From a virus: a stretch of DNA of 42,402 bases. Under the pieces are notes generated by a model. The model had not been told where the DNA came from. It ran no database searches and worked only from the letters and a program-made list of their open reading frames with translations. A program made the translations under genes and the position numbers. Positions 1,560-27,830 of the stretch are shown here, piece by piece; position 1 is the stretch's first letter, and each line of letters begins with the position of its first letter. The stretch is taken from the IMG/VR virus record IMGVR_UViG_3300045988_014198; one strand, written 5' to 3'.

Positions 1560-1762
1560 GGGTATGCAGGGGCAACCTGCCCGTGCCGATTCATTTCTTT
1601 TCCCCTCTTTTCTACCCTGTGGGGCGGGGCGGCAGCTCCGCCCTGACGGGGAAAACGCACAAAAATTAGCATTAGGGTGTGGCGAAAGCCTGGGAAAGAC
1701 GTGCCAATGACAAAGGCCAGTGGCGGGAGGCCGGTGCGTCAGGCAAGAAAGGGTGTGAGCGT

Positions 1763-3639: not shown

Positions 3640-5571
3640 ATGGAAAGATACGGCATCCCCGGCATCGTGCCGGAGGACGGTATGCCGCCGGAGATGGCGG
3701 CGATGCTGCTGGAGCGGACGGACGACACGCCTACCATCACAGAAAAGGACGTGGAGCGCGGGATCGACCTGCTGACGCGGTACAAAAACGGTAAGAACAA
3801 TCTGGAAAGCCGCGTGGTCAACGACGAGCTGTGGTGGGAGCTGCGGCACTGGGAGGGCATCGGGCAGAGCAAGGCCAAGCTGGTGGACAAAAGCGGAAAG
3901 GAAGTCCTCTCCTCCCCTCCCCAGCCAAAGCCCACGTCGGCGTGGCTGTTTAACACCATCCAGAACAAGCACGCAGACGCGATGGACAACTACCCGGAGC
4001 CGGTGGTGCTGCCCCGGGAAAAAAGCGACGAGCAGAGCGCAAAGACGCTGAGCCAGATTTTGCCGGTGGTGCAGGAGTACAACCATTTTGAGCAGGTGTA
4101 CTCGGACAACTGGTGGGAGAAACTGAAGCACGGCACGGCGGTGTACGGTGTGTTCTGGGACAGCCGAAAGGACAACGGTCTGGGCGACATCGAGATCCGG
4201 AACATTGACCTACTGAATCTGTTCTGGGAACCGGGGATCACGGACATCCAGAAGAGCCGCAACCTGTTTATCGTGGATCTGGTGGACAACGACCTGTTGG
4301 ACAGCGAGTACCCCCAGCTCAAGGGCAAGCAGAAGGGCAAGGTCGTGGATGTGAAGGAGTACATCTACGACGACACCGTGGACACCAGCGAGAAGAGCGT
4401 GGTGGTGGACTGGTATTACAAGGTCAAGACGCCCAGCGGCAGGACGGCGCTGCACTACATCAAGTTTGTTGGCTCCACCCTGCTGTACGCCAGTGAGAAC
4501 GATCCGGAATACCGGGAGCGGGGCTTTTACGACCACGGGATGTACCCTGTTGTGCTGGACGTGATGTACCCGGAAAAGGGTACGCCTATCGGCTTTGGGT
4601 ATGTGGCGATCTGCAAAGACCCCCAGCTTTATATCGACAAGCTCAGCGCCAACATTCTGGAAAACGCGATGATGGCGACCAAAAAGCGTTTTTTCGTGTC
4701 GGAAAGTACGGCCATCAACGAGCAGGAGTTTATCGACTGGAACCGACCCCTGGTACACGTCAACGGCGAGATCGGCGACCAGCGGATCAAGGAGATCGTT
4801 ACCCAGCCGCTTTCCGATATCTACGTCACGGTGGCGCAGATGAAAATCGAGGAGATGAAGGACACGGCGGCAAACCGCGATGTGAACTCCGGCGGCACCT
4901 CCAACGTGACGGCGGCAGCGGCGATTGCCGCCTTGCAGGAGGCCGGAAACAAGGCAAGCCGGGATATGATCGCCGCCAGCTACCGCGCCTACACCCAGAT
5001 CAACACGCTGTGCGTGGAGCTGATGCGGCAGTTTTACGACGTAAGCCGCAGCTTCCGCATTACAGGCGAGGGCAACGAGTATCAGTTCGTAGATTTTGAC
5101 AACGCGGGCTTGCAGGATCAGGTGACGGGGCTGGACACAATGGGCAACGAGATGTTCCGTAAGCCGGTGTTTGACCTCAAAATCAAGGCGCAGAAAAAGA
5201 ATCCGTTTTCCCGCATGGAGCAGAACGAGCGGGCCAAGGAGCTGTACTCCCTGGGATTTTTTAATCCGGATAACGCGCAGGCCAGTCTGACGGCGCTGGA
5301 GATGATGGACTTTGAGGGCATCCAGACCGTGCGGGAAAAGGTGATGCAGGGACAGACCCTGTTGAATATGCTGATGCAAATGCAGGCGCAGATCTCCATG
5401 CTGACGGGCGCTATCCTGCCGCAGGAGGGCGCGGGCGATGCACCGGCGCAGACTGGCGGCGGCGCACCTGCGGAGGCCACCAGCCAGCTTGCAAGCGGCA
5501 TTATGCAGGCGCAGACGCCTATGACCGGATACGGGCAGGCATTGGCAAAGCGGAGCACGCCCAGCCTATGA
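3640..5571 (+). CDS. Portal protein
   Basis: 643 aa, directly downstream of terL with an RBS (GGGGGAAAAGG). Size and position are typical of a portal, and the acidic/Gly-rich C-terminal tail fits. Confidence 0.8.
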   Translation: MERYGIPGIVPEDGMPPEMAAMLLERTDDTPTITEKDVERGIDLLTRYKNGKNNLESRVVNDELWWELRHWEGIGQSKAKLVDKSGKEVLSSPPQPKPTSAWLFNTIQNKHADAMDNYPEPVVLPREKSDEQSAKTLSQILPVVQEYNHFEQVYSDNWWEKLKHGTAVYGVFWDSRKDNGLGDIEIRNIDLLNLFWEPGITDIQKSRNLFIVDLVDNDLLDSEYPQLKGKQKGKVVDVKEYIYDDTVDTSEKSVVVDWYYKVKTPSGRTALHYIKFVGSTLLYASENDPEYRERGFYDHGMYPVVLDVMYPEKGTPIGFGYVAICKDPQLYIDKLSANILENAMMATKKRFFVSESTAINEQEFIDWNRPLVHVNGEIGDQRIKEIVTQPLSDIYVTVAQMKIEEMKDTAANRDVNSGGTSNVTAAAAIAALQEAGNKASRDMIAASYRAYTQINTLCVELMRQFYDVSRSFRITGEGNEYQFVDFDNAGLQDQVTGLDTMGNEMFRKPVFDLKIKAQKKNPFSRMEQNERAKELYSLGFFNPDNAQASLTALEMMDFEGIQTVREKVMQGQTLLNMLMQMQAQISMLTGAILPQEGAGDAPAQTGGGAPAEATSQLASGIMQAQTPMTGYGQALAKRSTPSL

Positions 5572-5855
5572 CGGAGGTAACACTGCATCACGGGGACAGC
5601 TGCTCGGTTAGGTGCAAGGGACACGCCACAGGATACCCCGACGTGTGTGCGGCGGTAAGCTGCCTCTTGTACACGGCGGCGGGATGGCTGCACAACACGC
5701 AGGAGGCGGAGCTGGTGCTGGAACGGCTGGACAGCGGGGATGCGTACCTGCGCTGGCACGGCGGGAGGTGGCTGTATGATTTGCTGGAAATCGGCTTTTT
5801 GCAGCTGGAAATGGCAAAGCCGGAGGCGATCTCCGTAAAAATAGAAAAAAAATAA
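5568..5855 (+). CDS. prp: Prp-family (DUF464, ribosomal-processing-type) cysteine protease
   Basis: 95 aa with the motif KGHATGYPDVCAAVS, matching the His/Cys dyad signature GHA....D.VCAAVS of Prp. The start overlaps the portal stop, and the gene lies just upstream of scaffold and capsid. Confidence 0.75.
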   Translation: MTEVTLHHGDSCSVRCKGHATGYPDVCAAVSCLLYTAAGWLHNTQEAELVLERLDSGDAYLRWHGGRWLYDLLEIGFLQLEMAKPEAISVKIEKK

Positions 5856-7018: not shown

Positions 7019-8302
7019 ATGAACGCAATTTACAACGACCTGTACCTGATGCCGGTGGTGCTGAACCTGTTTGACGCATACACCAATACCACGCTGGATC
7101 CCGGTCTGAGCGACGAGATGAAGGTGTATTACTCTATGCGCCTCATCAACCTCGCCGAGCCGGAGCTGATCCATGACCAGTTTGGCCAGAAGCACCCCAT
7201 CCCCAAGAACAGCGGTAAGACCATCGAGTTCCGGAAGTACGACAGCCTGCCCAAGGCTCTGATGCCTCTGACCGAAGGTGTGACCCCCGCCGGTCAGAAG
7301 ATGAGCATGGGCGTGATCCGCGCCACCATCAAGCAGTACGGCGGTTACATCGAGCTGTCCGACATCCTGGAGCTGACGGCCATCGACAACAACCTGGTGC
7401 AGGCCACCCGCCTGCTGGCATCTCAGGCAGGCCGTACCGCCGACACCATCACCCGCGAGGTGCTGGCTGGCGGCACCAACGTGGTGTACGCCGGTGGCGC
7501 AAAGGATCGCTCTGAGCTGGTGGGCGGCGACAGCACCGCCGAGAACAACAAGTACCTGACGGTGGACGACATCCGCAAGGCTGTACGCGCCCTGAAGGTC
7601 ATGAACGCCCAGAAGATCAACGGCTACTTTGCCGGTATCATCCATCCCGACACCGCCTACGACCTGATGAACGACAAGAAGTGGGTGGATGTGAAGACCT
7701 ACTCCGACCCCGATGGCATCTACGAGGGCGAGATCGGCAAGATCGAGGGTGTGCGCTTTGTGGAGACCACAGAGGCCAAGATTTTCCACGCCGCCCCACT
7801 GAAGATCGAGGACGGCGGCGAGGCAAGCGCCCGCAACCTGACAGTGAAGAGCGCGGCCAGCAAGGTCATTACCATCACCGAAAAGCTCTCCGCCAATCAG
7901 GCCAAGGCGCTGACCGGCAGAGACATTCTGGTGGGCGGCGAGCTGCTGGAGGTGGCGTCCGCTGCTGCCGGTGCTGCCGGTGCTGCCACCATCACCGTGA
8001 AGACCGCGCCTGCCACTACGCCTGCCGCCAGCACCGTGATCTATCCCGGCGAGGGCGGCGCAAACGGACGCGATGTGTACTCTACCCTGATCCTCGGCGC
8101 AGACGCCTACGGCGTGACGGAGCTGGAGGGCGGCGGCCTGCAGCACATCGTCAAGCAGCTGGGTTCCTCCGGTACGGCTGACCCGCTGAACCAGCGTGCC
8201 ACCGCAGGCTGGAAGCTGACCAAGGTGGCGGAGCGTCTGGTGGAGCAGTACATGGTGCGCATCGAATCCGCCTCTACCTTTGAGAGCGGCGCGATGAACT
8301 GA
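7019..8302 (+). CDS. Major capsid protein (N4-gp56-like family pattern)
   Basis: 427 aa. KNSGKTIEFRKY...LTEGVTP.G...IKQYGGYIELSD...QAGRTADTITREVL.GGTNVVYAGG matches the pattern I recall for the N4-gp56 major capsid family. A good RBS (GGAAAGGAG) is present. Confidence 0.85.
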   Translation: MNAIYNDLYLMPVVLNLFDAYTNTTLDPGLSDEMKVYYSMRLINLAEPELIHDQFGQKHPIPKNSGKTIEFRKYDSLPKALMPLTEGVTPAGQKMSMGVIRATIKQYGGYIELSDILELTAIDNNLVQATRLLASQAGRTADTITREVLAGGTNVVYAGGAKDRSELVGGDSTAENNKYLTVDDIRKAVRALKVMNAQKINGYFAGIIHPDTAYDLMNDKKWVDVKTYSDPDGIYEGEIGKIEGVRFVETTEAKIFHAAPLKIEDGGEASARNLTVKSAASKVITITEKLSANQAKALTGRDILVGGELLEVASAAAGAAGAATITVKTAPATTPAASTVIYPGEGGANGRDVYSTLILGADAYGVTELEGGGLQHIVKQLGSSGTADPLNQRATAGWKLTKVAERLVEQYMVRIESASTFESGAMN

Positions 8303-11038: not shown

Positions 11039-11368
11039 ATGGAAGCGTGGACAAATGTCGGCGTACCGCTGATCGTGGCGCTGCTGACCTCAACCGCTTT
11101 GTGGGGCGTGGTGAGCAAGGTGATCCTCAAGCGGATGGAGCTGACGGCCAAGCGCAGCAAGGCCGACGATGCGGAGCGGAAGATGCTGGTGGGGCTTGCC
11201 CACGACCGCATCATCCACCTCGGCATGGTGTACATCGAGCGGGGCTACGTCACACAGGACGAGTATGAGAACTTGCAGGTGTATCTATATGAGCCGTATG
11301 AGGAGATGGGCGGCAACGGCAGCGCACGGCGCGTCATGGAGGAAGTGCGGAAGCTGCCCATACGGTGA
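11039..11368 (+). CDS. Single-pass membrane protein, lysis-cassette associated
   Basis: ATG 11039 follows TAGGAGGTGA. It has an N-terminal TM segment (VGVPLIVALLTSTALWGVV) and lies immediately upstream of the holin. Confidence 0.5.
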   Translation: MEAWTNVGVPLIVALLTSTALWGVVSKVILKRMELTAKRSKADDAERKMLVGLAHDRIIHLGMVYIERGYVTQDEYENLQVYLYEPYEEMGGNGSARRVMEEVRKLPIR

Positions 11369-11408
11369 GACAAAATGGAACAGGCCGACAGGCCGGAAAG
11401 GAATTGTT

Positions 11409-11624
11409 ATGAAGCTGAACAACAAGGTATACGACATTCTCAAGTGGTTGGTCATCATCGTTATGCCCGCCGTGGCCACGCTGTACGCAGCGTTGGCGGC
11501 GGTGTGGGCGTGGCCCTATGCTGACGAGGTGGTGACCACCATCACCGCCGTGGACACGTTCCTCGGCGCGGTGCTGTGCATCAGCACGGCACAGTACCAC
11601 AAGGAGGCTGGCAACAATGGCTAA
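11409..11624 (+). CDS. Holin (Dp-1 / LL-H type pattern)
   Basis: 71 aa. KLNNKVYDILKWLVIIVMPAVATLYAALAAVWAWPY..VVTTITAVDTFLGAVL matches the Dp-1-type holin pattern. It overlaps the endolysin start. Confidence 0.75.
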   Translation: MKLNNKVYDILKWLVIIVMPAVATLYAALAAVWAWPYADEVVTTITAVDTFLGAVLCISTAQYHKEAGNNG

Positions 11625-12417
11625 TAGAGTGTATCTGTCCCCCAGTAACCAGCGAAGCAACAGCTATGCGGTGGGCGACACTACCGAGGCCATCCAGTGC
11701 GGGCGCATCGCAGAGGCTTGTAAGGCCGCGCTGGAGCGCTCCGGTGTGGAGGTGATGCTGGGGCAGTACGACACTATGGCAAACCGTGTGGCGGCGTCCA
11801 ACCGCTTTGGGGCTGATTTGCACGTCCCCATCCATTCCAACGCCTGCAACGGAAAAGCCAGCGGTACGCATCTGTTCTGTTACAGCCCCGATAAGGCAAG
11901 CGCAGGGTACAAGGCGTGTAAGGCTGTGATGGATGTACTGGGACCCGTGACGCCGGGTGCGCCGGACGTTATTCGCGCTTATCCAAGCCTGTACGAAGTG
12001 AAGTACCCCGCCGCGCCAACGGTATACATCGAGGTAGATTTCCACGATGTGGTCCACATCGCGGAGTGGATTATTAACCATACGACGCTCATCGGTGAGA
12101 CCATCGCCAAGGGCCTCTGCGCGGCGCTGGGCGTACCCTTTGTGGCGAGGGATGATGCGGAGCCAGCCCCGTCACCTGCACCTGCCGAAACGGTTTCTGT
12201 GGCTGTACGCGTGCTGCGTCGCGGCATGAAAGGCGCAGATGTGAAGACCCTGCAAGCGGCGCTGATCGCCTACGGCTGCTCCTGCGGAGCTGCCGGTGCG
12301 GACGGCGACTTTGGCGGCGGCACGGAGACGGCGCTGAAGAAGTTCCAGACCAAGTACAAGCTTGGTGCGGACGGTATCGCCGGTAAAGGCACCTGGGGCA
12401 AGCTGCTGGGGGAGTAA
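11617..12417 (+). CDS. Endolysin: N-acetylmuramoyl-L-alanine amidase with C-terminal PG_binding_1 domain
   Basis: The N-terminus (VYLSPSNQ...GADLHVPIHSNA...YIEVDFHD) is Amidase_3-like. The C-terminus (LRRGMKGADVKTLQAAL...DGDFGGGTETALKKFQ...GLGADGIAGKGTW) is a classic peptidoglycan-binding repeat. Confidence 0.85.
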   Translation: MANRVYLSPSNQRSNSYAVGDTTEAIQCGRIAEACKAALERSGVEVMLGQYDTMANRVAASNRFGADLHVPIHSNACNGKASGTHLFCYSPDKASAGYKACKAVMDVLGPVTPGAPDVIRAYPSLYEVKYPAAPTVYIEVDFHDVVHIAEWIINHTTLIGETIAKGLCAALGVPFVARDDAEPAPSPAPAETVSVAVRVLRRGMKGADVKTLQAALIAYGCSCGAAGADGDFGGGTETALKKFQTKYKLGADGIAGKGTWGKLLGE

Positions 12418-12428: not shown

Positions 12429-12776
12429 ATGACAGTAACGGGAACGATCTCCAAGGCGGATGAGCTGCGGATGAATACCATCAGCGACGAGCAAAAGGCG
12501 GCGTGGGTGATGGGACTGGATAAGGAGATCGCAGAACGGATATGCACAGAATCTCGCGTACACGACTGGCCCACGGGGGACGGGGAGCTGCTGCTCCCTT
12601 CCCCCTATGACCGGGTATATGTGCTGTATCTGTGCAGCCAAATTGACTACTACAACAACGAAACAGCGCTGTACGGCAACGACAAAGCCGTGTATGACGA
12701 GGCGCTGGGTGAGGCGCTGGCGTGGTGGCGGCGGAACAACTGCCCTGCGTATGGCGGAAGTGTGCAGGTGATGTGA
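12429..12776 (+). CDS. Hypothetical structural protein (possible head-tail adaptor)
   Basis: 115-aa ORF whose stop overlaps the next start (TGATG). The adaptor assignment is by position only. Confidence 0.45.
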   Translation: MTVTGTISKADELRMNTISDEQKAAWVMGLDKEIAERICTESRVHDWPTGDGELLLPSPYDRVYVLYLCSQIDYYNNETALYGNDKAVYDEALGEALAWWRRNNCPAYGGSVQVM

Positions 12777-14314
12777 TGCGAATGCCGGAATTGCCGTATG
12801 ATCTGCGGCCAAACAAAGTGGATATTGTACAGATGCGCGGCATCAACTGGTCAGATGCGCTGAAAGACGGCGATTTACGGGATAGCCTGAATGTGTCTGC
12901 CAGACGGTGGCCCTATATTACCACGCGAAAAGGCCGCGTGAAAAAAGACCCCTATAAGAACGCCACGGCAATGACGGCATGGGGAAAGCTGGTCGTGGTA
13001 CAGGGGACATCTCTGCTGTATGATGGGAAAAAGATCGGGACAGTGACAGCAGGGCAAAAGCAGTTCGCCGTGATCAACACGAAGATGGTGATATGGCCGG
13101 ACAAGGTGTATCTGGATATTAACTCCAAAAAAATAAAGCCGCTGGCGGCGACGGTGACGGGAAGCAAAGCCAAGTTTACGAAGAATAAAATGACGGTAAG
13201 CGGGTGGACGGACCTGACAACGCTTTTCAAGGCGGGCGACGGAGTTACGCTATCCGGCTGTGTGACGCAGAGCGCGAACAATAAGGATTTTGTGATCAAA
13301 ACCGTCACTGCCAAGGAAATCACCGTGGCGGACAATACCTTTACGGAGGCGACGGAAACCAGCACAAGCATCAAGATAGAGCGAAAAATTCCGGATCTTG
13401 ATTTTATCTGCGAAAGCGAAAACCGGTTATGGGGGTGCAACAGTACAACACAGACACTGTACGCCAGTGCGCTGGGAGACCCCACCAACTTTTATGTGTA
13501 CGAAGGACTTTCAACGGATTCCTATACGCTGGCGGTCGGCACGGATGGGAAATTTACAGGGTGCTGCAAGCTCAGCTCTTCCGTGTTGTTTTGGAAGGAA
13601 ACAAAACTGCACAAGATGCTGGGCGGCTATCCGGCAGAATATTCCATGTACACTTACGAGCTGGAAGGTCTGCAAGATGGGTGTCACAAGAGCCAGCAGG
13701 TCATTAACGACACGCTGTTTTACAAAGGGCCTCACGGGGTGTACGCCTATTCCGGCGGTACGCCCACGCTGATCAGCGAGAATTTCGGCGAGAAAGTTTT
13801 TTCGGACGCGGTGGCAGGAAACGACGGAGACAGATATTACCTGAGCGTAAAAGACGGTGACACAAGCCGCCTGATGGTGTACGAGACCAAAACAGGCATT
13901 TGGGTGCTGGAGGATGAGACAAAGGCGGTAGATTTTGCGCGGCTGGGTCGGCAGCTTTATATGCTGGACGGCAGCGGAAACATTTATCTGCTGGATGGAG
14001 AGGAAACGCCGCAGACGCAGATGTGGATGGTGCAATTTGCGCCGATGTATGAAACGCTGAACGGGAAAAAAGCGTATTCACGGATGCTGATGCGGGTGGA
14101 ATTGCCGGTGGGAAGCTATGTGATCGTCAAAATGCGCTGCGATGGAAAGCCGTGGAAGGAGTGCGGAAGACTGATTGGACGCGAGGTCAATGTGACGCGG
14201 ATGCGGTTTGCTGCAAACCGTTGCGATAAATTTGAGCTTCGGTTGGAGGGAAAAGGCCCGTGCGCGGTTCTCGGTATATCCAGAGAATTTATTTTGGGGA
14301 GTGATGTGACGTGA
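12776..14314 (+). CDS. Putative tail hub/nozzle-type structural protein (beta-propeller-like repeats)
   Basis: 512 aa with repeated beta-strand-rich blocks (YAYSGGTP, YYLSVKDGD, LMVYETKTGIW, LYMLDGSGNIYLLDG). Function is inferred from size, position and composition. Confidence 0.45.
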   Translation: MRMPELPYDLRPNKVDIVQMRGINWSDALKDGDLRDSLNVSARRWPYITTRKGRVKKDPYKNATAMTAWGKLVVVQGTSLLYDGKKIGTVTAGQKQFAVINTKMVIWPDKVYLDINSKKIKPLAATVTGSKAKFTKNKMTVSGWTDLTTLFKAGDGVTLSGCVTQSANNKDFVIKTVTAKEITVADNTFTEATETSTSIKIERKIPDLDFICESENRLWGCNSTTQTLYASALGDPTNFYVYEGLSTDSYTLAVGTDGKFTGCCKLSSSVLFWKETKLHKMLGGYPAEYSMYTYELEGLQDGCHKSQQVINDTLFYKGPHGVYAYSGGTPTLISENFGEKVFSDAVAGNDGDRYYLSVKDGDTSRLMVYETKTGIWVLEDETKAVDFARLGRQLYMLDGSGNIYLLDGEETPQTQMWMVQFAPMYETLNGKKAYSRMLMRVELPVGSYVIVKMRCDGKPWKECGRLIGREVNVTRMRFAANRCDKFELRLEGKGPCAVLGISREFILGSDVT

Positions 14315-14670
14315 TCGTATTTCCGGAGAGCCTAAACGCTATACCAAAATCAGACCCTGAGACTGCGTTCCAAATCATCGAGGACTATATCAGGTATATG
14401 TGTCAGCGGACAGATTGGGCCATCAGTAATGTTGGCAAAACAGTCAGTGCGGCAGGCGTTTCCAGTGCAGAGATTTACATTTTGCTGACTGCGCTTCAAA
14501 ACACAGTGTCCGCATTGCAGAGCACAGTGAACAGCCACAGTGCCAGCATATCTGCACTGCTGCAAAGCGTTACGACACTGAGCAATGACCAAACTGCGCT
14601 GGCTGGCCGCGTGACGGCACTGGAACAGCGCGTGACGGCACTGGAAAACAACAACACGGAGGGCACATAA
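14311..14670 (+). CDS. Coiled-coil structural protein
   Basis: 119 aa with heptad-like repeats (VSALQSTVNSHSASISALLQSVTTLSNDQTALAGRVTALEQRVTALEN). It overlaps both neighbours. Confidence 0.5.
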   Translation: MIVFPESLNAIPKSDPETAFQIIEDYIRYMCQRTDWAISNVGKTVSAAGVSSAEIYILLTALQNTVSALQSTVNSHSASISALLQSVTTLSNDQTALAGRVTALEQRVTALENNNTEGT

Positions 14671-15725
14671 TGGATATCAGAAAAAAATACGACGATATTG
14701 GGAAGAAAAAAACCACACTGCCGTCTTTGGCAAATGCCATTGAGAAATCTTGGGGGGTCGGCCCCTACAACATTGGCAACATCAACGGCTCCCGGAGCAC
14801 CATAACGCCCACGCCAAGCATTGCAGGGGCTGTTTCCGGTGCGGCACCTCGGAACTATTCAACCACGGGACCGACCGCAGCGGTTACTGGTGCGATTACC
14901 GGCGCTATTCCGCGAACACCGAGCGGGCTTTCCCCGGATGCTGTTCTTGCCGGGGCGATCCGTGGCGGCGCAGGCATTGCCTTCTTGCCGACGGATACCG
15001 GCAGAGGCGGGGCATCCAGCGGCGGAACTTATGGATCGAATCAGCAGGTAACCCTCCCCGCCAGCATTGACGAGCTGCCCACCTACAACAGCGAGTACAT
15101 GGACACGCTGAATGAGTTGGCCAAACAGCTGATCAGCATGAACTACGATGACTGGACAAAGGGCAGTCAGTATCAGGCGTTGGCTGACCGGTACGGGAAT
15201 AACGGGCGGATGAGCATGCAGGACGTTCTTGGGCAGGTGGCCAGCCGCACCGGCGGCCTTGCCTCCAGCTATGCCACCACGGCGGCGCAGCAGCAGTACA
15301 ACCAGTACATGGCGCAGCTGGAGGAGGTAGCGCGGCAGATGTACTCGCAGGATCGAAGCGATTTGCTGGACAACGCCAATTTGTACCGAAATCTGGCCAA
15401 TGACGAGTACGATCGGTACCGCGACAGTCTGAGCGATTACAACACGCAAAAGGCGGCGATACGGGCGGCAGGAAGTGCGTACGGAAGTGGCGGATCCAGC
15501 GGAGGCGGTGAATCAAGTATCCAGAGATTGAAGTCGCAGAGCGGAACGCAAAACTCGAAGGGCGTATCTGATTACAGCGCAACAAAAAACAACATTCTGA
15601 TGTATGCCAGCCGAGGCATGGATTCAGTTGCAAACCGGATCGTTGCTCAGGTATGGGATCAGCTGACACCAGCCCAGCAAAAGGATCTTGCCAATACGCT
15701 GGAAGGCAAGGGGTGGAAAGAGTAA
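14670..15725 (+). CDS. Hypothetical virion protein (Gly/Ala/Ser/Thr-rich N-terminal half, Q/Y-rich helical C-terminal half)
   Basis: 351-aa ORF. Its ATG overlaps the upstream TAA, and it precedes the giant virion protein. No family recognised. Confidence 0.5.
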   Translation: MDIRKKYDDIGKKKTTLPSLANAIEKSWGVGPYNIGNINGSRSTITPTPSIAGAVSGAAPRNYSTTGPTAAVTGAITGAIPRTPSGLSPDAVLAGAIRGGAGIAFLPTDTGRGGASSGGTYGSNQQVTLPASIDELPTYNSEYMDTLNELAKQLISMNYDDWTKGSQYQALADRYGNNGRMSMQDVLGQVASRTGGLASSYATTAAQQQYNQYMAQLEEVARQMYSQDRSDLLDNANLYRNLANDEYDRYRDSLSDYNTQKAAIRAAGSAYGSGGSSGGGESSIQRLKSQSGTQNSKGVSDYSATKNNILMYASRGMDSVANRIVAQVWDQLTPAQQKDLANTLEGKGWKE

Positions 15726-15740
15726 TGGGAGGAAAGGCGC

Positions 15741-18700
15741 ATGGCTAACGGAACGGTAAAAATGCCGGTGGTCAACACAAAAAAGCAGAAGCAGGGCAGC
15801 GCGCTGGAGATGCCGGTAGTCAATACAAAGAAACAACGCGCTTCCGCAGATACCGTAAAAGCAGATACGTCAGGGCAAAAAAACGCGGCGAAGCAGACGG
15901 GGCAGACAAATTACCGTGAGGTCGATCCACTTCCCAATATTGCGAATACCGGTGCTCTCGGCGCGGGAAATTATGGTGCGGACAAGCAGGCCAACGATGG
16001 GTACAACTATGGAAAGGGCCTGCTGAAAGCGGGAGGCATGGGTCTTTCGGCTATCGCACGAGATGTGACCGCGCCGCTGGCCTTTGGAGAGCGCACGGTG
16101 GCCAAGGGCTGGAACGCGCTGTTTGGAAATATCGCACCGATGAACGAGCGCGGTTTTTTCAACGCATGGGACGAAAATATTGCCCTCGAACAGGAGGGGC
16201 TGCAGCAGAAGTACGCGGAAAACACTGCCAAGGGCGGCCAGTATGCGGAGAAGGGGGAGAATCTGTTGGCGTCTGCGGTGGAGGCGCTGCCCTCGCTGGC
16301 CATCGCCTTCGCCACCGGCGGCACCAGCGCGGCGGCAAAGGCGGGCACCTTGGCAGCGCAGACGGCGGCCAAGAGTTCCCCCGCGCTGGTGCAGACGCTG
16401 AAGAATGTGGCGGCGGCCCGCGCCAAAGATCCCAACTATCTCTTCAGCGCGGCGCAGATCTTCTCCCACAGCTACAACGACGCAAAGACGGAGGGCGTAG
16501 ATGATAAGCGGGCCGCGCTGTACGCTATCGGGAACGCGCTGCTGGGGTCGGAGATCGAGATCAGCGGCGGTATTCAAAACCTGCCCGGAAAGGTGGCGAA
16601 CCAGGCGGCGTGGCGGACGCTGGTGAACACCATGCTGGACGAAGGCAAGGAGGAGGTTTTGCAGGGCATCATCGACCGAACACTGCAAAATGCGGTATAT
16701 GATGCCGATAATCCGTATTTTGGCGTAAACGAAAACGCGATTTTTGATCCAGGAACCGCTGCCGAAGAGTTTGCTGGAGGCGCGATCGTCGGCGGATTGC
16801 TGTCCGGCGGCACAATGGGCGTGAATACCCTTGCCAACCGTGTAGCGTATGGCGCAGCAAAAGCACAGTACAACCGAGACGTGCGGCAGAACACCGCGCC
16901 GGAGATGAACGAAAAGGCTTCGGAGGCGGTGGAGGCTGTGACGCGGGGCGAGACCATCACAGGCAATCAGGCGGCGGCTATCGCCCGTGACCCGGTGGCG
17001 GTGGAGGTGCTGGAGCAGCGCACCGGCGTGAAGCTGGACACGGACAAGCCGATCAGCCAGGTAAAACGGGACATTGCGGGGCTTGCAAGCCGCGAGGCGG
17101 CGCATGAAACGCAGAGAGCTACACCTCCCTCCCCTGCTGTGCAGAAACGCGCAGAGAAGCGCGTAGGCGGCTTTTTGGAAAACGGGCAAAAGGCGTATCA
17201 GGAAATGAGCCGGACGGCAGAGGATGCACCTTCCCTGTATGCAGGATTTTCCAGCGTGTACAACGCGGGACTGAACGGCATCGAAGCGGACAAGGCCAAG
17301 GGCAAGTACGCGGCGATGCTGACGCCGGAGCAGCGGTACGCGGCGTACAATGCTGGGCTGGAGGACGCACGGGCGCAAGTGGCACGGGAGAACGCGGAGG
17401 TAGCATCCGTGACAACCACGGCGGGTGCCGGTCTGGCGGACAACGAGTACAGCCGGGCCATTATTGCCAAAAGCAAGAACACGGCGTCCGTTTTTAATGC
17501 TGTCGGCAAAAAGCTGGGCGTGCGCATTGAATTTGTGGATAAGGTCATGGGCGGCAAAGCCAACGGCCAGTACATCCGGGAGCAGAACCTAATCCAGATC
17601 GCAACCGACAGGAAAAAACCGTATCTGCCGGTGGCGGCGCACGAGATCACCCACCGGATGCAGGACCTTGCGCCCAACGAATACCGGGAGTTCCGCAAGG
17701 CGGCTCTGGAATACCGGATGCGGGAAAACGGCGCGGACACCGAGGCTGAATGGGTCGATACATACATCGAAATCGCGGAACAGGACGGCGTGACGCTGAC
17801 GCAGGACGAAGCGATGGACGAGATCGCGGCGGACTTCGCCGGGGAAATGCTGGACAATATCGACTTGTTCGAGCGCTTCACCAAGGAAAACCGCACCGTG
17901 GCGCAAAAGCTGCTGGACAGTCTGAAGGAGTTTATTGGCAAGGTCAAGTCTATCTTTACCGGCAACGCCAGAGAAAAGGCGGCGCAGGATGCCTACGGCA
18001 AGAGCTTTGGCGAACTGGAAGCCGTGGCACAGAAATGGCAGACGGCCTTTGACGCGGCGGCGAAACGTGCTATAATCAACACAGAAAAGACTTTTACGGA
18101 GGGCGCAGAATATGAACGAGAAGGACGAGCTGGTAAAGAAGCTTATGGACGCGGCGAAGAAGAAGGGCGAGCAGCCGGACGAGGAGAGGATCAAACAGTT
18201 CGTGGAGAGTTTTCTTCTTCTTCTGGACGACACGGAGAAATAGGCGCAGATTTTGGAGAGAAACCTTATCGCGCATGGGTAAGCGGCAATACTATTGCAC
18301 CGGGCGTCGGTTCTGTATCTTATGATGCGCAGAAAACGGCGGCGGAATTTCGCGTGCCCAGTTTTGTGGTATCCGATACTGCATGGGTAAAGGAACGTGG
18401 CGCCAATTCTTCGCCAGCGTTTTCCGTTCACGGGCAGATATATTTCCGCGAAACCGCACCGGAGAGAAACCGTGGTATGCTGGCACCGCACGAAATTACA
18501 CACGTCATGGCTCAGACGGGGTTTTCGCCCTATATTGATTTTGTTGAACGCACCCCGAGTATGCTGAACATGAGTGATCCGGTCACGCAAATTCTGCTTG
18601 AGCAGGTGGCCGCGCATCAAGGTGCGACAATAGAAACGGCAGACCCCGCACACCTGTACGACGAGTTTAACGCCACGATGTATGGGCACATTGCCTCTGG

Positions 18701-21596
18701 CAAAACCGAGTTGTTCACAAGCGGTGAGGGAAAGGGCGTATTTAACGACTATGCCGCCTATGAACAGGAGCTGCGCAGCATCCACGAACAATTCAGAACC
18801 AGAAACGATTCAGACGGGCGCCGACAGCTGCGGAGCACGGAACGGCTTTCCGACGAGCTGGAGGATCTGCGCGACACCTATATCCGCAGGTACGGCGAGA
18901 TACCGGAGGGTGAAAACGCCACGCGCAAGGTGAGGATGCCGCGCAAAACGAGCGACAACAAAAAAGTGTCGCAAACGGTGCGCACCATTCTGGAGGCAAA
19001 AGCCACACCGGATGATCTGACACCTACCATTGAGGAAATGGCGCTGCGCGGTGAGTTCTCGTATGAGGCATATTCCGACAAGAACGCCATTGCTGACGCG
19101 ACGGCAGAGATCAAGCGCGTGGGGTGGGCGCAGGCACTCACGGATTGGACGAGCAGCGTCCAAAAAGGCAACGTTTCCAAGAAGAATACCGCAATGGGCT
19201 GGGCGCTGTATAACAATGCCGCCAACAGCGGCGACACAGCGACTGCGCTGACTGTGCTGAACAATATGGTCGAGCATCAGCGAAGCGCAGCACAAGCACT
19301 GCAAGCCACGCGCATACTGAAAAAGCTTAGTCCCGAAACACAGCTCTATCAGGTGCAGCGCAGCGTTGAAAACTTGCAGGAGGAAATGAACAAGCGCTAT
19401 GGCGACAAAAAATCTCCTAAGCTGAAAATCGACCCGGAGCTGGCGGAGCGATTTATGCGGGCAAAGAATCAGACCGAGCGAGATAAAGCGCTGACTGATA
19501 TCTACCGAGACATTGGCCGTCAGATGCCGTCGAGATTGATCGACAAATGGAACGCATGGCGATATCTTGCGATGCTCGGAAACGCGAGAACTCATGTGCG
19601 AAACATTGTCGGCAATGCTGGGTTCGCCCCGGTCGTCGCCCTTAAAAACACGATTGCCATCGGCATTGAAGCGGGAACAAGCCGCGTTACTGGCGGAAAA
19701 CTTGAGCGAAGCAAAACATTTGCTGGCGGCGCAGAGGGCAAGGCTCTCAGAAAAGCGGCGTCTGCGGATTTTGCAAAAATCCAAGATGCGGTAATGGGCG
19801 GCGGAAAGTACAGCGAGTTCCAAAATGCCAATAAGCATATAGAGGAAGGCCGCGTAATTTTCCAGAGTAAAATTCCCGGTCTAAAGCAAGTCAGCAAGGG
19901 TCTGGAGTGGGCAAGAAAGGCAAACAGCGTTGCGCTGGATGCGGAGGATATGTGGTTTTCTAAGCCGCATTACGCCCACGCAATGGCGCAATACTGCAAG
20001 GCACACGGCATCACGGCAGAAATGATCGCCAAGGGCGAAAACATTGAGAAGGCCAGACAATACGCAATCAAGGAAGCGCAAAAAGCGACATACCGCGACA
20101 CGAACGCTTTTTCTCAGTTCGCAAGCGAGATCGGAAGACGAAGCAGGCAGGGAAACAGAACAGGCGTGGAAAAAGTGGCAAGTGGTATTGTGGAGGGTAT
20201 TCTCCCGTTCCGCAAAACGCCTGCCAACATTTTAGTACGCGGCGTGGAATACAGCCCCATCGGTCTGATGCGCGGCATAAAGCAAGCAGTGTTTGATGTG
20301 AGAGCCGGGAAAATAACGGGCGCAGAAGCCATTGATACGATCTCTGCCGGATTGACCGGCACGGCGTTGGTTGGGCTTGGTGCGTTTCTCGCGGCGCAAG
20401 CTCTTTTGCGTGGACACGGCGGAGATGATGATGATAAGAACAAGTTCGACGAACTGCAAGGGCATCAGGCCTATTCGCTTGAGCTGCCGGATGGGACAAG
20501 CATCACGCTTGATTGGCTGGCTCCGGAGTGTCTCCCGTTGTTTATTGGCGTAAACCTGTGGGAACAGACAAATGGTGGAAAAAGCTCTTTAACGCTGGCG
20601 GAACTGCTGGAAGCAATCTCCAACGTGTCCGAGCCTCTTTTGGAAATGAGCTGTCTGCAAAGCCTAAACGACGTGCTTGACGTAGTGGGATACGCAAAAA
20701 GCGACGGTTTGGCGGCACTTCCAAAGGCTATGGCTAACGCGGCCACCAGTTATCTGACGCAGGCGCTTCCCACGCTTTTAGGTCAGGCAGAACGAACCGG
20801 CGAGGACAAGCGGTATACAACATATACAGACAAGAATGCGTTTTTGACAACGGATATGCAGTATACCCTTGGCCGAGCCAGCGCCCGCATTCCGGGGTGG
20901 GATTATAAGCAGATCCCGTTTATCGACGCATGGGGTCGTACAGAATACACGGGAAAGACCGCAGCGCGTGCCTTTAACAATTTCCTGAATCCCGCTTTTG
21001 TTTCCGAAGTCAATAAAAGCCCGATGGAAACGGAGCTAATGCGGCTATATAACGCAACGGGCGAATCTGTTTTCCCCAGCAGAGCCGGTAAGACAATTAC
21101 TGTCAACGGAGAACGTGTCAATCTGACCGCAGAGGAGTATGTGAAGTACGCCGAAAAGAAAGGGAAGGGAGCATATGACCGGCTTACAAACCTGACAAAG
21201 GACGCGGAGTATAAGAAACTGACGGATGCCGAAAAGGTGCAGTGCGTGGATCTTATTTACACCTTTACTGACCAGATGGCAAAGACAAGCGTCAGCAAGT
21301 ACACGCCTGATTCGTGGGTCAAAAAGGCATCTGAAGCGGAAAAAAAGGGCATCAGCGTCACCGATTTTGTCATTGCAAAGACAAAAGTATCGCCGGTCGA
21401 ATCGCTTAAAGACAGCAAGGGAAATTCGATTCAATACAGCAAAAGCCTTTTGATCATGGAGCGGCTATACACGATTCCCGGATTGACCAGTGAGCAAAGA
21501 CGTATTTTGTTCATTGACTTGGGTGTGAGTGAAAAGGTTGCGCATTACAACAAGGCGCTTGTGCAGCAGGAATTGAATAAGATGCGAAATAAATAA
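15741..21596 (+). CDS. Giant (1951 aa) multidomain virion/ejection-type protein with two zincin HExxH motifs and C-terminal TM segments
   Basis: Uninterrupted 5.9-kb ORF. HEITH occurs at 17640-17654 (aa 634-638) and again at 18489-18503 (aa 917-921). A hydrophobic segment GLTGTALVGLGAFLAAQALL lies near 20347-20406, and MPVVNTKKQ is duplicated at the N-terminus. Confidence 0.8.
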   Translation: MANGTVKMPVVNTKKQKQGSALEMPVVNTKKQRASADTVKADTSGQKNAAKQTGQTNYREVDPLPNIANTGALGAGNYGADKQANDGYNYGKGLLKAGGMGLSAIARDVTAPLAFGERTVAKGWNALFGNIAPMNERGFFNAWDENIALEQEGLQQKYAENTAKGGQYAEKGENLLASAVEALPSLAIAFATGGTSAAAKAGTLAAQTAAKSSPALVQTLKNVAAARAKDPNYLFSAAQIFSHSYNDAKTEGVDDKRAALYAIGNALLGSEIEISGGIQNLPGKVANQAAWRTLVNTMLDEGKEEVLQGIIDRTLQNAVYDADNPYFGVNENAIFDPGTAAEEFAGGAIVGGLLSGGTMGVNTLANRVAYGAAKAQYNRDVRQNTAPEMNEKASEAVEAVTRGETITGNQAAAIARDPVAVEVLEQRTGVKLDTDKPISQVKRDIAGLASREAAHETQRATPPSPAVQKRAEKRVGGFLENGQKAYQEMSRTAEDAPSLYAGFSSVYNAGLNGIEADKAKGKYAAMLTPEQRYAAYNAGLEDARAQVARENAEVASVTTTAGAGLADNEYSRAIIAKSKNTASVFNAVGKKLGVRIEFVDKVMGGKANGQYIREQNLIQIATDRKKPYLPVAAHEITHRMQDLAPNEYREFRKAALEYRMRENGADTEAEWVDTYIEIAEQDGVTLTQDEAMDEIAADFAGEMLDNIDLFERFTKENRTVAQKLLDSLKEFIGKVKSIFTGNAREKAAQDAYGKSFGELEAVAQKWQTAFDAAAKRAIINTEKTFTEGAEYEREGRAGKEAYGRGEEEGRAAGRGEDQTVRGEFSSSSGRHGEIGADFGEKPYRAWVSGNTIAPGVGSVSYDAQKTAAEFRVPSFVVSDTAWVKERGANSSPAFSVHGQIYFRETAPERNRGMLAPHEITHVMAQTGFSPYIDFVERTPSMLNMSDPVTQILLEQVAAHQGATIETADPAHLYDEFNATMYGHIASGKTELFTSGEGKGVFNDYAAYEQELRSIHEQFRTRNDSDGRRQLRSTERLSDELEDLRDTYIRRYGEIPEGENATRKVRMPRKTSDNKKVSQTVRTILEAKATPDDLTPTIEEMALRGEFSYEAYSDKNAIADATAEIKRVGWAQALTDWTSSVQKGNVSKKNTAMGWALYNNAANSGDTATALTVLNNMVEHQRSAAQALQATRILKKLSPETQLYQVQRSVENLQEEMNKRYGDKKSPKLKIDPELAERFMRAKNQTERDKALTDIYRDIGRQMPSRLIDKWNAWRYLAMLGNARTHVRNIVGNAGFAPVVALKNTIAIGIEAGTSRVTGGKLERSKTFAGGAEGKALRKAASADFAKIQDAVMGGGKYSEFQNANKHIEEGRVIFQSKIPGLKQVSKGLEWARKANSVALDAEDMWFSKPHYAHAMAQYCKAHGITAEMIAKGENIEKARQYAIKEAQKATYRDTNAFSQFASEIGRRSRQGNRTGVEKVASGIVEGILPFRKTPANILVRGVEYSPIGLMRGIKQAVFDVRAGKITGAEAIDTISAGLTGTALVGLGAFLAAQALLRGHGGDDDDKNKFDELQGHQAYSLELPDGTSITLDWLAPECLPLFIGVNLWEQTNGGKSSLTLAELLEAISNVSEPLLEMSCLQSLNDVLDVVGYAKSDGLAALPKAMANAATSYLTQALPTLLGQAERTGEDKRYTTYTDKNAFLTTDMQYTLGRASARIPGWDYKQIPFIDAWGRTEYTGKTAARAFNNFLNPAFVSEVNKSPMETELMRLYNATGESVFPSRAGKTITVNGERVNLTAEEYVKYAEKKGKGAYDRLTNLTKDAEYKKLTDAEKVQCVDLIYTFTDQMAKTSVSKYTPDSWVKKASEAEKKGISVTDFVIAKTKVSPVESLKDSKGNSIQYSKSLLIMERLYTIPGLTSEQRRILFIDLGVSEKVAHYNKALVQQELNKMRNK

Positions 21597-22738: not shown

Positions 22739-22966
22739 ATGACTGTTAAGGAAATTTGCGATGTTCTCCAAAATCCCCGTGAGGTCAACCTGTCGGCAGA
22801 CGGCTTCTGCTACCCCGTGATGCGGGACGGCGAAAAGGAATACGATCTTGTGATGATGGCCGCGTTTGGCGACTGCAAGGTGCGGAATCTGATATCCTGC
22901 AGGAACAAGGACGGATGCTTTGAAATCGCGCTGGCGATGGATCTGGTGAAGGAGGTGCAGTCATGA
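22739..22966 (+). CDS. Hypothetical small protein
   Basis: 75-aa ORF with an RBS (AGAGAGGA). Its stop overlaps the antirepressor start (ATGA). Confidence 0.5.
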   Translation: MTVKEICDVLQNPREVNLSADGFCYPVMRDGEKEYDLVMMAAFGDCKVRNLISCRNKDGCFEIALAMDLVKEVQS

Positions 22967-23700
22967 GCGAGCTGATGATCTTCAACAACCCGTATTTCGG
23001 GGATGTGCGCATCGTGGAGCAGAAGGGCGAGCCGTGGTTTGTGGGGAAGGACGTGGCGACGGCGCTGGGGTATAAGAACAGCAGGCAGGCCCTTGCAACG
23101 AATGTGGACGTTGACGATAGGGGCGTCCAAGAAATGGACACCCCCTCCGGAACGCAGGAGATGACCATCATCAACGAGAGCGGCTTGTACTCCCTTATCC
23201 TTGGCTCCAAGCTGCCCACGGCGAAGGAGTTCAAGCGGTGGGTGACGGGTGAGGTGCTGCCCGCTATCCGCAAGCACGGAGGCTACGTGAACGGGCAGGA
23301 AAGCATGACGCCGGAGGAGCTGATGGCGGCGGCGCTGCTGATGGCGCAGAGAACCATCGCAGACAGGGACGCGCGTATCTCCACGCTGACTGTGGAAAAT
23401 CAGATCATGGCACCAAAGGCAGACTACTTCGACCAGCTGGTGGAGCGGAACACGCTGACGAACTTCCGGGAGACGGCCAAGGCGCTGGAGGTATCGCCGA
23501 AGAAGTTTGTATCGTTCCTACTGGAGAAGAAGTATATCTATCGGGACAGCAAGGGCAAACTGCTGCCCTATGAGGCGAAGAACGACGGTCTTTTCGAGGT
23601 GAAGGAGTGTTTGAACGAAAAGACGAAGTGGAGCGGCGTACAGACGCTGATCACGCCGAAGGGGCGGGAGACATTCCGGCTTCTGTTTCCTGCGGCATAA
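22963..23700 (+). CDS. Antirepressor (BRO-N domain + KilA-C/ANT domain)
   Basis: The N-terminus (IFNNPYFGDVRIVEQKGEPWFVGKDVATALGY...SGLYSLILGSKLP.AKEFKRWVT.EVLPAIRKHG) is a classic Bro-N. The C-terminus (KADYFDQLV...NFRETAKAL...KKFVSFLLEKKYIYRD) is KilAC-like. Confidence 0.8.
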   Translation: MSELMIFNNPYFGDVRIVEQKGEPWFVGKDVATALGYKNSRQALATNVDVDDRGVQEMDTPSGTQEMTIINESGLYSLILGSKLPTAKEFKRWVTGEVLPAIRKHGGYVNGQESMTPEELMAAALLMAQRTIADRDARISTLTVENQIMAPKADYFDQLVERNTLTNFRETAKALEVSPKKFVSFLLEKKYIYRDSKGKLLPYEAKNDGLFEVKECLNEKTKWSGVQTLITPKGRETFRLLFPAA

Positions 23701-26744: not shown

Positions 26745-27830
26745 TTACAAATTACTTGCAGATTCAACGGCGGAGATGAGCTTTTCCGCGTCTGCATGGA
26801 TGTAAATGTCCGCCGTGGTGGAGAAGTTTGCGTGACCGATGATCTTCTGCAAGATCTCCGGCTGGATGCCTGAACTTCTCGCCCATGTTGCGTAAGTGTG
26901 GCGCGTGGCGTGGGGTGTGTGCTTTGGGATACCGAGCTTTTCCAGCAACGGATAGAAATCACGTTTGCGGTAATTGGCGGGGATGCGCTGCCCATCGTAG
27001 CCGGAAATGAGCAGGTCGCCGGTGGCGCGGGAGGCGAAGTATGCAAAATACTTCCTACCATCCGGGCGGATGGGAATGACGCGGTCTCTACCGGCTTTTG
27101 TCTTTTCGCCGCCGATCACATACGATTCATGGTAGTCTTTCAGCGGCAGGGAGAACAATTCACCGATGCGCATACCGGTGTAAATCATCATAAGGGCGAT
27201 TTTGGCGGCGTCGGAGCCGTCTTTTTCCAATAGCGCGATCTCGTCATCTGTAAAGATGGCTTTTTCTTTTTTTACCTGCTGGGGCAGCTTGACGTATTTG
27301 GCAAAGTCGGTTGTGGCGATCTCCTCACGGACAGCCCAGCGGGCCATCTGGGTCATGAGCTGCTTGTATTTGGACAGCGTGGAGTTGGACTTTGCCATGT
27401 TGCTGTCGATGATGGCTTGAAAGTCCTTTGTGCGCAGGTCGCGGAATTTCTTGTTGTGCAGCGGAGCACATACGGCGTAGGCTCTGTCATAGGATTCTAC
27501 GCCCTTCTCCCCTATCTCCCGATAGTGTTCGGCTTTCCATTCGGTGAACACTTCGGAAAAGGTCATATTGAACTTTTCCTCCAGCGGACGGCCTGCCAGC
27601 CGATCCAGTGCGGCCAGCGCGTCCGTCTTCCGCTCGTAGTACCCGATATATACGCCGTCTTTTGCGGCGACCCAAGGCCGGGACCGCCGCCCACCCAGCT
27701 TATACACCGTGCCGGACCCGTTGGGGCGTTTCAGCGCCTTGCGGGAGGCCGTGACCTGCTTTTTCCCGCAGATATGGCAATAAACGGCATCCGGTACCAG
27801 GGGGACGCCGCATTTAATACAAGTAGACAT
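26745..27830 (-). CDS. int: Tyrosine integrase with N-terminal zinc ribbon
   Basis: 361 aa. The C-terminal HATRHTYATWA...LQKIIGHANFSTTADIYIH carries the R-H-R-Y catalytic signature. The N-terminus is CIKCG...CHICG. RBS is GTGAGGTG. Confidence 0.9.
   Translation of the reverse strand: MSTCIKCGVPLVPDAVYCHICGKKQVTASRKALKRPNGSGTVYKLGGRRSRPWVAAKDGVYIGYYERKTDALAALDRLAGRPLEEKFNMTFSEVFTEWKAEHYREIGEKGVESYDRAYAVCAPLHNKKFRDLRTKDFQAIIDSNMAKSNSTLSKYKQLMTQMARWAVREEIATTDFAKYVKLPQQVKKEKAIFTDDEIALLEKDGSDAAKIALMMIYTGMRIGELFSLPLKDYHESYVIGGEKTKAGRDRVIPIRPDGRKYFAYFASRATGDLLISGYDGQRIPANYRKRDFYPLLEKLGIPKHTPHATRHTYATWARSSGIQPEILQKIIGHANFSTTADIYIHADAEKLISAVESASNL

Follow-up and report, generated by a model that had tools for sequence, protein, structure and literature searches.

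The IMG/VR virus record IMGVR_UViG_3300045988_014198, a stretch of 42,402 nucleotides (nt) that we refer to in its full length as the window, contains one giant open reading frame (ORF) in its late operon. This ORF occupies 13.8% of the 42.4-kb window and encodes a protein of 1951 amino acids (aa). It is preceded by a strong Shine-Dalgarno sequence, GGGAGGAAAGG, at 15725-15735, the end of which lies 6 nt upstream of the ATG. As detailed below, we consider it probable that the product is carried inside the capsid and enters the host by ejection along with the DNA, and that it represents a phage-type polyvalent protein of three parts. These parts are a conserved N-terminal scaffold (module A), an exchangeable cassette and a conserved C-terminal module (module C), with the following features:

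15741-21596, plus strand: whole gene for the 1951-aa protein of probable polyvalent or internal-virion type, a single ATG-started ORF (translation)
15762-15836, plus strand: N-terminal tandem peptide MPVVNTKKQ (aa 8-16 and 24-32), found by script, with copies differing at synonymous sites only
15741-18071, plus strand: module A, aa 1-777, as mapped by BLAST on 120 relatives of 35-99% identity
17418-18020, plus strand: predicted zincin module 1, aa ~560-760, with H634-E635-x-x-H638 (nt 17640-17654) and E694 (nt 17820-17822)
18061-18824, plus strand: exchangeable cassette, aa ~774-1028, a linker rich in Glu, Gly and Arg (E/G/R linker) plus zincin module 2, delimited by the nucleotide homology break
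18321-18806, plus strand: predicted zincin module 2, aa 861-1022, DUF4157/eCIS_core-like, with H917-E918-x-x-H921 (nt 18489-18503) and D974-E975 (nt 18660-18665)
18819-18836, plus strand: RRQLRS (aa 1027-1032), a degenerate form of the junction between modules, at the boundary of cassette and module C, where relatives read [FY][SQ][LM][KR]
18813-21593, plus strand: module C, aa 1025-1951 (927 aa), mostly helical and resembling internal virion proteins
20340-20435, plus strand: Gly-rich hydrophobic helix (aa 1534-1556; hydropathy peak 1.7), followed by DDDD (aa 1562-1565)

A preliminary description of the window had reported a single 5.9-kb ORF of about 14 percent of the genome with two HEITH motifs 283 residues apart and an E/G/R-rich low-complexity linker. 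All of this was confirmed: the ORF listing and translation returned the single ORF, and a script placed the linker at aa 790 and found exactly two HExxH motifs in the 1951-aa protein, both HEITH, at aa 634 and aa 917. From the composition of the protein, 0.017 such motifs would be expected by chance. In relatives, the same two positions read HEVTH or HELTH (first motif) and HEIMH, HEVTH or HELTH (second motif), and the shared pentapeptide is incidental, a coincidence of this lineage. The tandem MPVVNTKKQ of the same description is present as well, at aa 8 and aa 24, but it is not a fresh duplication. The two 27-nt copies show 5 differences, all of them synonymous, and the peptide is therefore conserved rather than freshly duplicated. 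In related lineages, the N-termini of the giant proteins carry other short peptides in two to three copies, the sequence of which is lineage-specific. Repeats of this kind were seen at the N-termini of P0003 (MPVINN/MPVLKE), P0015 (KVTYVG, three times), P0086, P0136 (RLDRIQ, twice) and P0137. The N-terminal repeated peptide may be a packaging or portal-docking signal.

The three-part architecture became evident from a homology search with the giant protein, which returned 971 homologues at E<=1e-3, the best 120 of which were mapped onto the query by BLAST. Module C is 64-100% identical in these 120 relatives and is separated from module A, in most of them, by unrelated inserts of 193-786 aa. 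The inserts cluster into at least 12 types, three of which are named by Pfam (ART-PolyVal, LPD3+PBECR5 and MuF_C). The borders of this slot are sharp at the nucleotide level. When the window was compared with three syntenic relatives, identity was 87-97% over the greater part of the structural and lysogeny regions that aligned, while the homology ended at 18060 and restarted at 18825. In the syntenic relatives the slot is filled by foreign DNA of 1.3 kb (ADP-ribosyltransferase, ART) or 2.2 kb (LPD3+PBECR5). The second HEITH module lies wholly within the exchangeable cassette and the first within the fixed scaffold. Among the 120 close relatives, the first HExxH is found in 120/120 and the second in 20/120, always 283 residues downstream. 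As these homology breaks show, the cassette is exchanged horizontally. In models made with AlphaFold2 (AF2), two parts of the N-terminal half have a predicted local distance difference test score (pLDDT) below 50, namely the Ala/Gly-rich, helical aa 1-390 of module A and the E/G/R linker (aa 778-860). A further rearrangement was observed in P0091-P0120, where module A with zincin 1 is joined to a different C-terminal half of 1383-2168 aa, and no similarity between these tails and module C was detected. One N-terminal module is thus shared by two alternative C-terminal chassis.

In zincin module 1, an alignment of 15 sequences, with homologues 17-39% identical to the query, left H634, E635, H638 and E694 as the only invariant columns. 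This is, on conservation grounds, the metal-site quartet of a gluzincin. The AF2 topology of the module consists of helices at 569-592, strands at 595-599, 609-612 and 617-621, the HExxH helix at 628-643 and the helix with the distal Glu at 688-705, with a pLDDT of 60-85. Zincin 1 is present in 75 of the 136 distant full-length relatives that carry module C; 20 of the 136 are without any HExxH, and in 19 at least two HExxH motifs precede module C. Database searches with zincin 1 members gave sub-threshold matches only, among them six zincin families (DUF6782, eCIS_core, M90, Zincin_2, SprT-like and Tox-MPTase2).

For zincin module 2, 40 sequences of 29-100% identity were aligned, in which G898, R903, H917, E918, H921, M923, Q925, P930, Y931, F934, D974, E975, Y981 and Y1007 are invariant. 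Its AF2 model, with a pLDDT of 70-94, comprises a helix at 861-869, strands at 874-877, 893-896 and 899-903, the HExxH helix at 908-925 and the Glu helix at 969-985. The Pfam family eCIS_core (DUF4157) matched 8 of 11 divergent zincin 2 members at E<=1, with a best E of 6.1e-6.

Both modules are modelled in the same order: a helix at the N-terminus leads into a sheet of three strands, after which come the HExxH helix, a pair of inserted helices and the distal-Glu helix. The distal Glu follows the second His of the motif by 56 residues in zincin 1 (E694) and by 54 in zincin 2 (E975), and in both cases it is invariant and placed in a modelled helix. The metallopeptidase (MPTase) domains of polyvalent proteins have this same layout, with variable inserts between the catalytic helices (Iyer et al. 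2017, PMC5512222). The AF2 model of aa 1-1030, with a mean pLDDT of 53.5, is good only for aa 860-1022 and usable for aa 540-777. When this 1030-aa model, half of which is of low confidence, was searched against the PDB with Foldseek, nothing significant was retrieved; the matches were spurious helical ones and the zincin PprI ranked 24 at E 2.5. Profile searches of the PDB, run for module C and for each of the two zincins, yielded artefacts only (such as RecA concatemers and designed repeats), and searches of Pfam, PHROGs and the PDB sequences with the whole protein gave nothing usable. With the invariant HExxH and downstream Glu, the modelled topology and the eCIS_core matches of module 2, the zincin-like nature proposed in the preliminary description is upheld, and both modules are predicted zincin-like metallopeptidase domains.

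The proposal that the module had been duplicated internally stood in part. Zincin 1 and zincin 2 are alike with a BLAST E of 0.008 over 45 aa and an hhalign probability of 44-55% (E 1.2e-4 at 55%), and hhalign superimposes the two HExxH motifs and likewise the two Glu helices, which is consistent with remote kinship. A recent internal duplication was nevertheless rejected, since the similarity is marginal and the two modules differ in evolutionary status, one being fixed in the scaffold and the other located in an exchanged cassette. The two belong to one superfamily and have separate histories.

Module C defines a large family. An exhaustive HMMER search across 1.84 billion representatives of clusters at 50% identity found it in 7173, 3481 of these at E<=1e-30. 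In the 150 best matches listed of these 7173, it is at or near the C-terminus in every case (150/150), and the proteins carrying it range from 878 to 3973 aa. In the query, module C is recognised by neither Pfam nor PHROGs, and tblastn found it in no record among 50,697 GenBank phages. Its AF2 model, based on a 95-sequence alignment of 33-95% identity, is confident and mostly helical, with a mean pLDDT of 79.4 and a predicted template modelling score (pTM) of 0.65. Foldseek found no significant match for it in the PDB (best E 0.77) and 53 matches at E<=1e-3 among the predicted viral structures of BFVD. The top BFVD matches are metagenomic phage proteins named for LPD3, PolyVal-ART, MuF_C or nuclease domains, that is, members of the same family. 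The next ones, at 12-16% identity, are whole-length 'internal virion proteins' of cultured T7-like phages, namely Pelagibacter phage Eyrgjafa and Synechococcus phages S-RIP1, S-CBP3 and S-CBP2, at E 5e-11 to 4e-8. The S-RIP1 match is a 1067-aa gene product at the position of T7 gp16, and a profile comparison of module C with it gave no signal. Furthermore, 2 of 20 divergent module C sequences matched phrog_6651, 'internal virion protein' (E 1.2e-8); when ten divergent members were rescanned for this family, the two matching ones were not among them.

The preliminary description had also assigned hydrophobic helices and a DDDD tract to a membrane-active C-terminal half. The tract, at aa 1562, and a hydrophobic stretch, GLTGTALVGLGAFLAAQALL at aa 1537, were located by script, yet only one segment of this half, aa 1534-1556, exceeds the hydropathy threshold, so that the plural has to be given up. 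This segment falls in the modelled helix 503-528 of module C. Across the 95 sequences G1540 and G1547 are invariant, and G1537, L1538, T1539 and D1563 nearly so. Membrane insertion of the helix is plausible, and the membrane-active half of the description is supported in part, by this single conserved Gly-rich helix.

Every module boundary in the relatives bears the motif [FY][SQ][LMI][KR], typically as (R/K)(F/Y)SLK(G/D)S. In P0013 it occurs at aa 787, 992 and 1517, and it was also noted in P0018 and P0092. The nearest cousins of the query that carry zincin 2 have DFQL or QFSLK at the boundary between cassette and module C, where the query has its degenerate form. In the 136 full-length representatives the motif density per 1000 aa was 1.08 upstream of module C versus 0.066 within it, a 16-fold difference, and the motifs numbered 1.85 per protein versus 0.57 in shuffled sequences. 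The idea that the motif is a cleavage site of zincin 1 found no support, as the motifs are more numerous, rather than scarcer, in the 20 relatives that lack HExxH. It may be cut by some other protease, or may mark a folding boundary or a recombination joint.

The window is a closed circle of 42.35 kb, the ends of which share an exact overlap of 52 bp. The genes that place the giant ORF in its context are the following:

1679-2191, plus strand: small terminase (family searches)
2184-3626, plus strand: large terminase (family searches)
3640-5571, plus strand: P22-type portal (family searches)
5568-5855, plus strand: Prp-like small peptidase of 95 aa (phrog_4478), between the portal and the scaffold-position gene
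7019-8302, plus strand: major capsid protein, preceded by the scaffold-position gene
12722-15725, plus strand: three genes upstream of the giant ORF (530, 119 and 351 aa) in the same operon, their order conserved in relatives
26745-27830, minus strand: integrase-like ORF of 361 aa, identified by 92.5% nt identity and synteny to the Phage_integrase gene of relative L077

On the plus strand, the capsid gene is followed by two collagen-like fibre genes and then by a holin and an Amidase_3/PG_binding_1 endolysin. The giant ORF is co-oriented with this late operon and starts 16 nt after the preceding gene, and its position is the same in all relatives examined. For the 530-aa product, the family search gave phrog_511 ('internal virion protein') at E 3e-59. 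Family searches assigned no confident family to the 119-aa and 351-aa products, and all three are candidates for further internal or tail-hub proteins. Genes for a tube, sheath, terminator, tape measure or (frameshifted) chaperone had no candidate anywhere in the 42-kb circle, and the phage is predicted to be of a tail-tube-less, P22-portal type. The relatives, which are syntenic with the window, encode a tyrosine integrase, and homologous loci occur as integrated elements in genomes of Lawsonibacter, Pseudoflavonifractor, Yeguia, Massiliimalia, Intestinimonas and many metagenome-assembled genomes (MAGs) of Oscillospiraceae and Acutalibacteraceae. We therefore conclude that the window derives from a temperate phage of gut Clostridia. 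Helix-turn-helix repressor-like genes adjoin the 361-aa integrase-like ORF and a Bro-N/ANT antirepressor is encoded at 22963-23700, which, by their predicted functions and together with the integrase, also indicates a temperate lifestyle. The genome was further compared with 50,697 GenBank phages by tblastn, the queries being the whole giant protein, module C, a distant homologue, the 530-aa neighbour and the portal. No cultured relative was found among them, as only unannotated faecal contigs and the portal of Bacillus phage PK1 were matched. The two portals are 25% identical, and module C has no relationship to the giant protein that PK1 encodes.

Taken as a capsid-internal, ejected polyvalent protein, the product of the giant ORF would work as follows. 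Module C would be the structural chassis, a helical internal-virion (ejection or pilot) module with a structural or translocon role; by its place and predicted fold it would be the analogue of the core protein found at the gp16 position in T7-like phages, and its Gly-rich helix could insert into the membrane. Module A would carry a resident metallopeptidase domain of the gluzincin type (H634, E635, H638 and E694), the most likely role of which is to process, during maturation or once ejected, either the polyprotein itself or a partner from the virion or the host. In the slot between modules A and C, recombination would exchange effector cassettes. Here the payload would consist of the disordered E/G/R linker and the DUF4157/eCIS_core-type zincin 2 (H917, E918, H921 and E975), while sister phages carry an ADP-ribosyltransferase or a BECR-fold RNase in the same slot. 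The architecture, the cassette exchange, the conserved metal-site residues, the late-operon position, the spread of module C and its prophage hosts (Oscillospiraceae/Clostridia) are direct observations. Packaging, ejection, catalytic activity and the division of roles between the two zincins are what we infer from knowledge of polyvalent proteins (Iyer et al. 2017, PMC5512222), of podovirus ejection proteins (PMC8954989) and of phi24B gp47. The preliminary description had likewise favoured an ejected polyvalent protein over a tape measure, and it is supported in this by the polyvalent domains in the slot of relatives, the fold match of module C and phrog_6651. In addition, gp47 of the short-tailed phage phi24B, a polyvalent protein of 2811 aa, was detected in virions by proteomics (bioRxiv 10.64898/2026.04.10.717836).

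Several observations weigh against this reading. Virion morphology is deduced only from gene content, and the GenBank phage searches gave no cultured relative. By PDB sequence, profile and Foldseek searches, no solved structure resembles any part of the protein in sequence or fold. Zincin 1 reaches no curated zincin family above threshold, and zincin 2 of the query scores 15-18 bits against eCIS_core (PF13699), the gathering threshold of which is 22 bits; it appears to be related to this family as a borderline case and is not a formal Pfam member. The link of module C to gp16-like proteins compares predicted with predicted structures, at TM-scores of 0.3-0.45 and with no profile similarity. 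The junction motif occurs independently of HExxH and therefore lends no support to self-cleavage by zincin 1. Lastly, the HExxH of DUF4157 was reported to be dispensable for the toxicity of one eCIS (extracellular contractile injection system) effector (PMC11297309), and the HExxH motifs of the giant protein therefore need not be catalytic.

Conceivably, the HExxH modules are non-catalytic and serve in packaging, as chaperones or as adaptors, tagging cargo that is to be loaded and injected. Zincin 2 stands at the margin of eCIS_core/DUF4157, the signature of injected eCIS cargo, for which a chaperone role was proposed alongside the dispensable HExxH (PMC11297309), and encapsidation of the N4 virion RNA polymerase requires its MPTase region (Iyer et al., PMC5512222). 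We nonetheless regard this as unlikely, because neither module, down to 17-29% identity, shows any change in the catalytic Glu of HExxH or in the distal Glu ligand, and because the metal-site residues are the sole invariant positions of zincin 1, which fits an active metal site rather than a binding surface. It is less likely still that the zincins are virion-borne cell-wall or envelope hydrolases that open the Gram-positive peptidoglycan as the lytic transglycosylase domain of T7 gp16 does. Ejection proteins of podoviruses do often include a domain that degrades the wall (review PMC8954989), phi24B gp47 has a metallopeptidase region for which this role was likewise proposed (bioRxiv 10.64898/2026.04.10.717836), and the fixation of zincin 1 in the scaffold is what would be expected of a housekeeping entry function. 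However, zincin 1 is kept by only 75 of the 136 distant relatives, and 20 have no HExxH, so it is not required for entry; the slot of zincin 2 holds cytoplasm-acting enzymes (ART and RNase) elsewhere; and Pfam detected no wall-binding domain in the giant protein. To our knowledge, moreover, the known peptidoglycan peptidases of phages have LAS/M23, M15, NlpC/P60 or amidase folds and are not HExxH gluzincins.

The remaining explanations place the protein in another device or outside the virion altogether. We see little room for a secreted or intracellular toxin or anti-defence factor of the prophage that neighbours the structural genes by chance. Packaging of the family is a prediction, and ART and RNase domains are also found in polymorphic toxins (Iyer et al., PMC5512222); on the other hand, the spacing of 16 nt and the shared orientation tie the gene to the late operon, its position is conserved in all relatives examined, the N-terminus does not resemble a signal peptide, and the conserved half resembles internal virion proteins. 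The least credible option, which we hold to be extremely improbable, is a tape measure of a long-tailed phage decorated with enzymatic domains. The great length, the helix-rich composition, the hydrophobic segment and the location at the end of the structural operon would suit such a protein, tape measures can bear peptidase domains, and the zincin 2 profile had a weak, non-significant PDB match to a tape measure (E 0.11). Against this, the circle lacks the tail tube, sheath, terminator and frameshifted chaperone genes and has a P22-type portal, module C is modelled as a compact multi-helix body (pTM 0.65) and not as an extended coil, and tape-measure families of Pfam and PHROGs had no match, nor was any of the 50 BFVD matches listed annotated as a tape measure. 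The relatives, moreover, vary in length (from 1100 to 3973 aa) by insertion of enzymatic cassettes, which is unsuited to a length ruler.

The ejected polyvalent protein that we favour can be compared with several known systems. Like the polyvalent proteins (Iyer et al. 2017, J Bacteriol, PMC5512222), it is a large multidomain phage polypeptide (1951 aa) in a virion gene context, encoded in the late operon, and it would join zincin-like MPTase with effector domains. MPTase is the commonest domain of that class, 36% of the members having 1-5 copies and ~8% of those more than one, and mosaicism between orthologues is extensive (PMC5512222). Hallmark domains of the class (ART-PolyVal, PBECR5, LPD3 and MuF_C) occupy the position of the second HEITH in relatives. 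Unlike in that set, modules A and C match no Pfam family searched, including the LPD and MPTase-PolyVal families derived from that study, and a term search of PMC5512222 found neither the fixed-chassis-plus-slot layout nor the [FY]SLK junction motif. Typical polyvalent proteins combine disparate enzymes, whereas the query has nothing but two zincin-like modules and structural ones; in orthologous relatives, zincin 1 is accompanied by ART-PolyVal, PBECR5/LPD3 or MuF_C. As with T7 gp16, the protein is the largest of its operon and follows smaller internal-protein candidates (530, 119 and 351 aa, then 1951 aa), an enzymatic N-terminal part would precede a structural C-terminal part (PMC8954989), and module C matches the predicted structures of S-RIP1 and related phages in Foldseek. 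It differs from gp16 in that sequence or profile similarity and a Foldseek match in the PDB are absent, the predicted zincin replaces the transglycosylase, and the host is a monoderm Clostridium-class bacterium; ejection proteins were not found in the phi29-like podoviruses that infect Gram-positive hosts (PMC8954989). Compared by description only, phi24B gp47 is likewise a giant polyvalent and proposed ejection protein with LPD domains and a metallopeptidase region (bioRxiv 10.64898/2026.04.10.717836), but with a domain set of LPD5/1/38 and MuF-C and a Gram-negative host. Finally, DUF4157/eCIS_core (PF13699) is an HExxH domain that marks the cargo of phage-derived injection devices, as in effectors of eCIS and of the type VI secretion system (PMC11297309). 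Here, in contrast, the domain is internal to a polyprotein and not N-terminal, and it has ~100 further conserved residues, including the D974-E975 helix.

The twin-zincin feature is not new in kind, given that polyvalent proteins with 1-5 MPTase domains were described before. We found no description of the 927-aa C-terminal chassis, its family size and its likeness, in phages that infect monoderm hosts, to internal virion proteins at the gp16 position, nor of the single, sharply delimited cassette slot, nor of the junction motif. MuF-anchored polymorphic toxins of temperate Firmicutes phages are a further related system, in which exchangeable toxin modules are attached to a conserved domain for virion targeting. 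These toxins have an N-terminal MuF anchor and a C-terminal toxin, whereas here the putative anchor is the C-terminal 927 aa and the variable part is internal. The giant protein would combine a fixed delivery chassis with an exchangeable payload in one phage protein, and near-identical gut phages would differ almost only in what they inject, be it a second zincin, an ADP-ribosyltransferase or an RNase. Naming module C would annotate a large block of the 'dark matter' of the gut virome, and it would point to the proteins by which phages of Clostridia act on their hosts as soon as infection begins. Precise residues for mutation are offered by the invariant H-E-H-E quartets and by the junction motif. 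More tentatively, and with considerable doubt, module C could be a very large, hitherto unannotated family of ejection chassis in temperate phages of monoderm gut Clostridia that lack a tail tube, with a plug-in slot bounded by [FY][SQ][LM][KR] for effector cassettes that arrive by recombination, the junctions being protease sites that free the effectors after injection; the cutter would be zincin 1 or another phage or host protease. If true, this would amount to a capsid-based phage counterpart of polymorphic-toxin systems and extend ejectosome-type DNA delivery to Gram-positive hosts.

Some additional observations concern the remainder of the genome and its relatives. A counterpart of the 95-aa gene in relative L078 has a weak match to Peptidase_Prp, and the 95-aa Prp-like peptidase is a candidate for a trans-acting maturation protease of head or internal proteins. 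The lysis cassette (11169-12417) is located within the structural operon, between the collagen-like fibre genes and those for internal virion proteins, and not at the operon end; this order is kept in relatives. Some module C loci are binned to diderm lineages, namely L075 (Selenomonadales MAG), L062 (Bacteroidales MAG) and L042 (Pseudomonadota MAG), and either a fault of binning or a broader range of hosts may account for this. The product of the gene across the circle junction (1-628 plus 42276-42402) begins with a short helix, continues with a long (S/D)G(S/Y)G repeat and ends in a globular part. Another gene with a Gly-Tyr repeat is found at 39767-40513, where TRF detected an array at 39816-40044 with a period of 6 and 38 copies, and its counterpart in one relative matches DUF7666.

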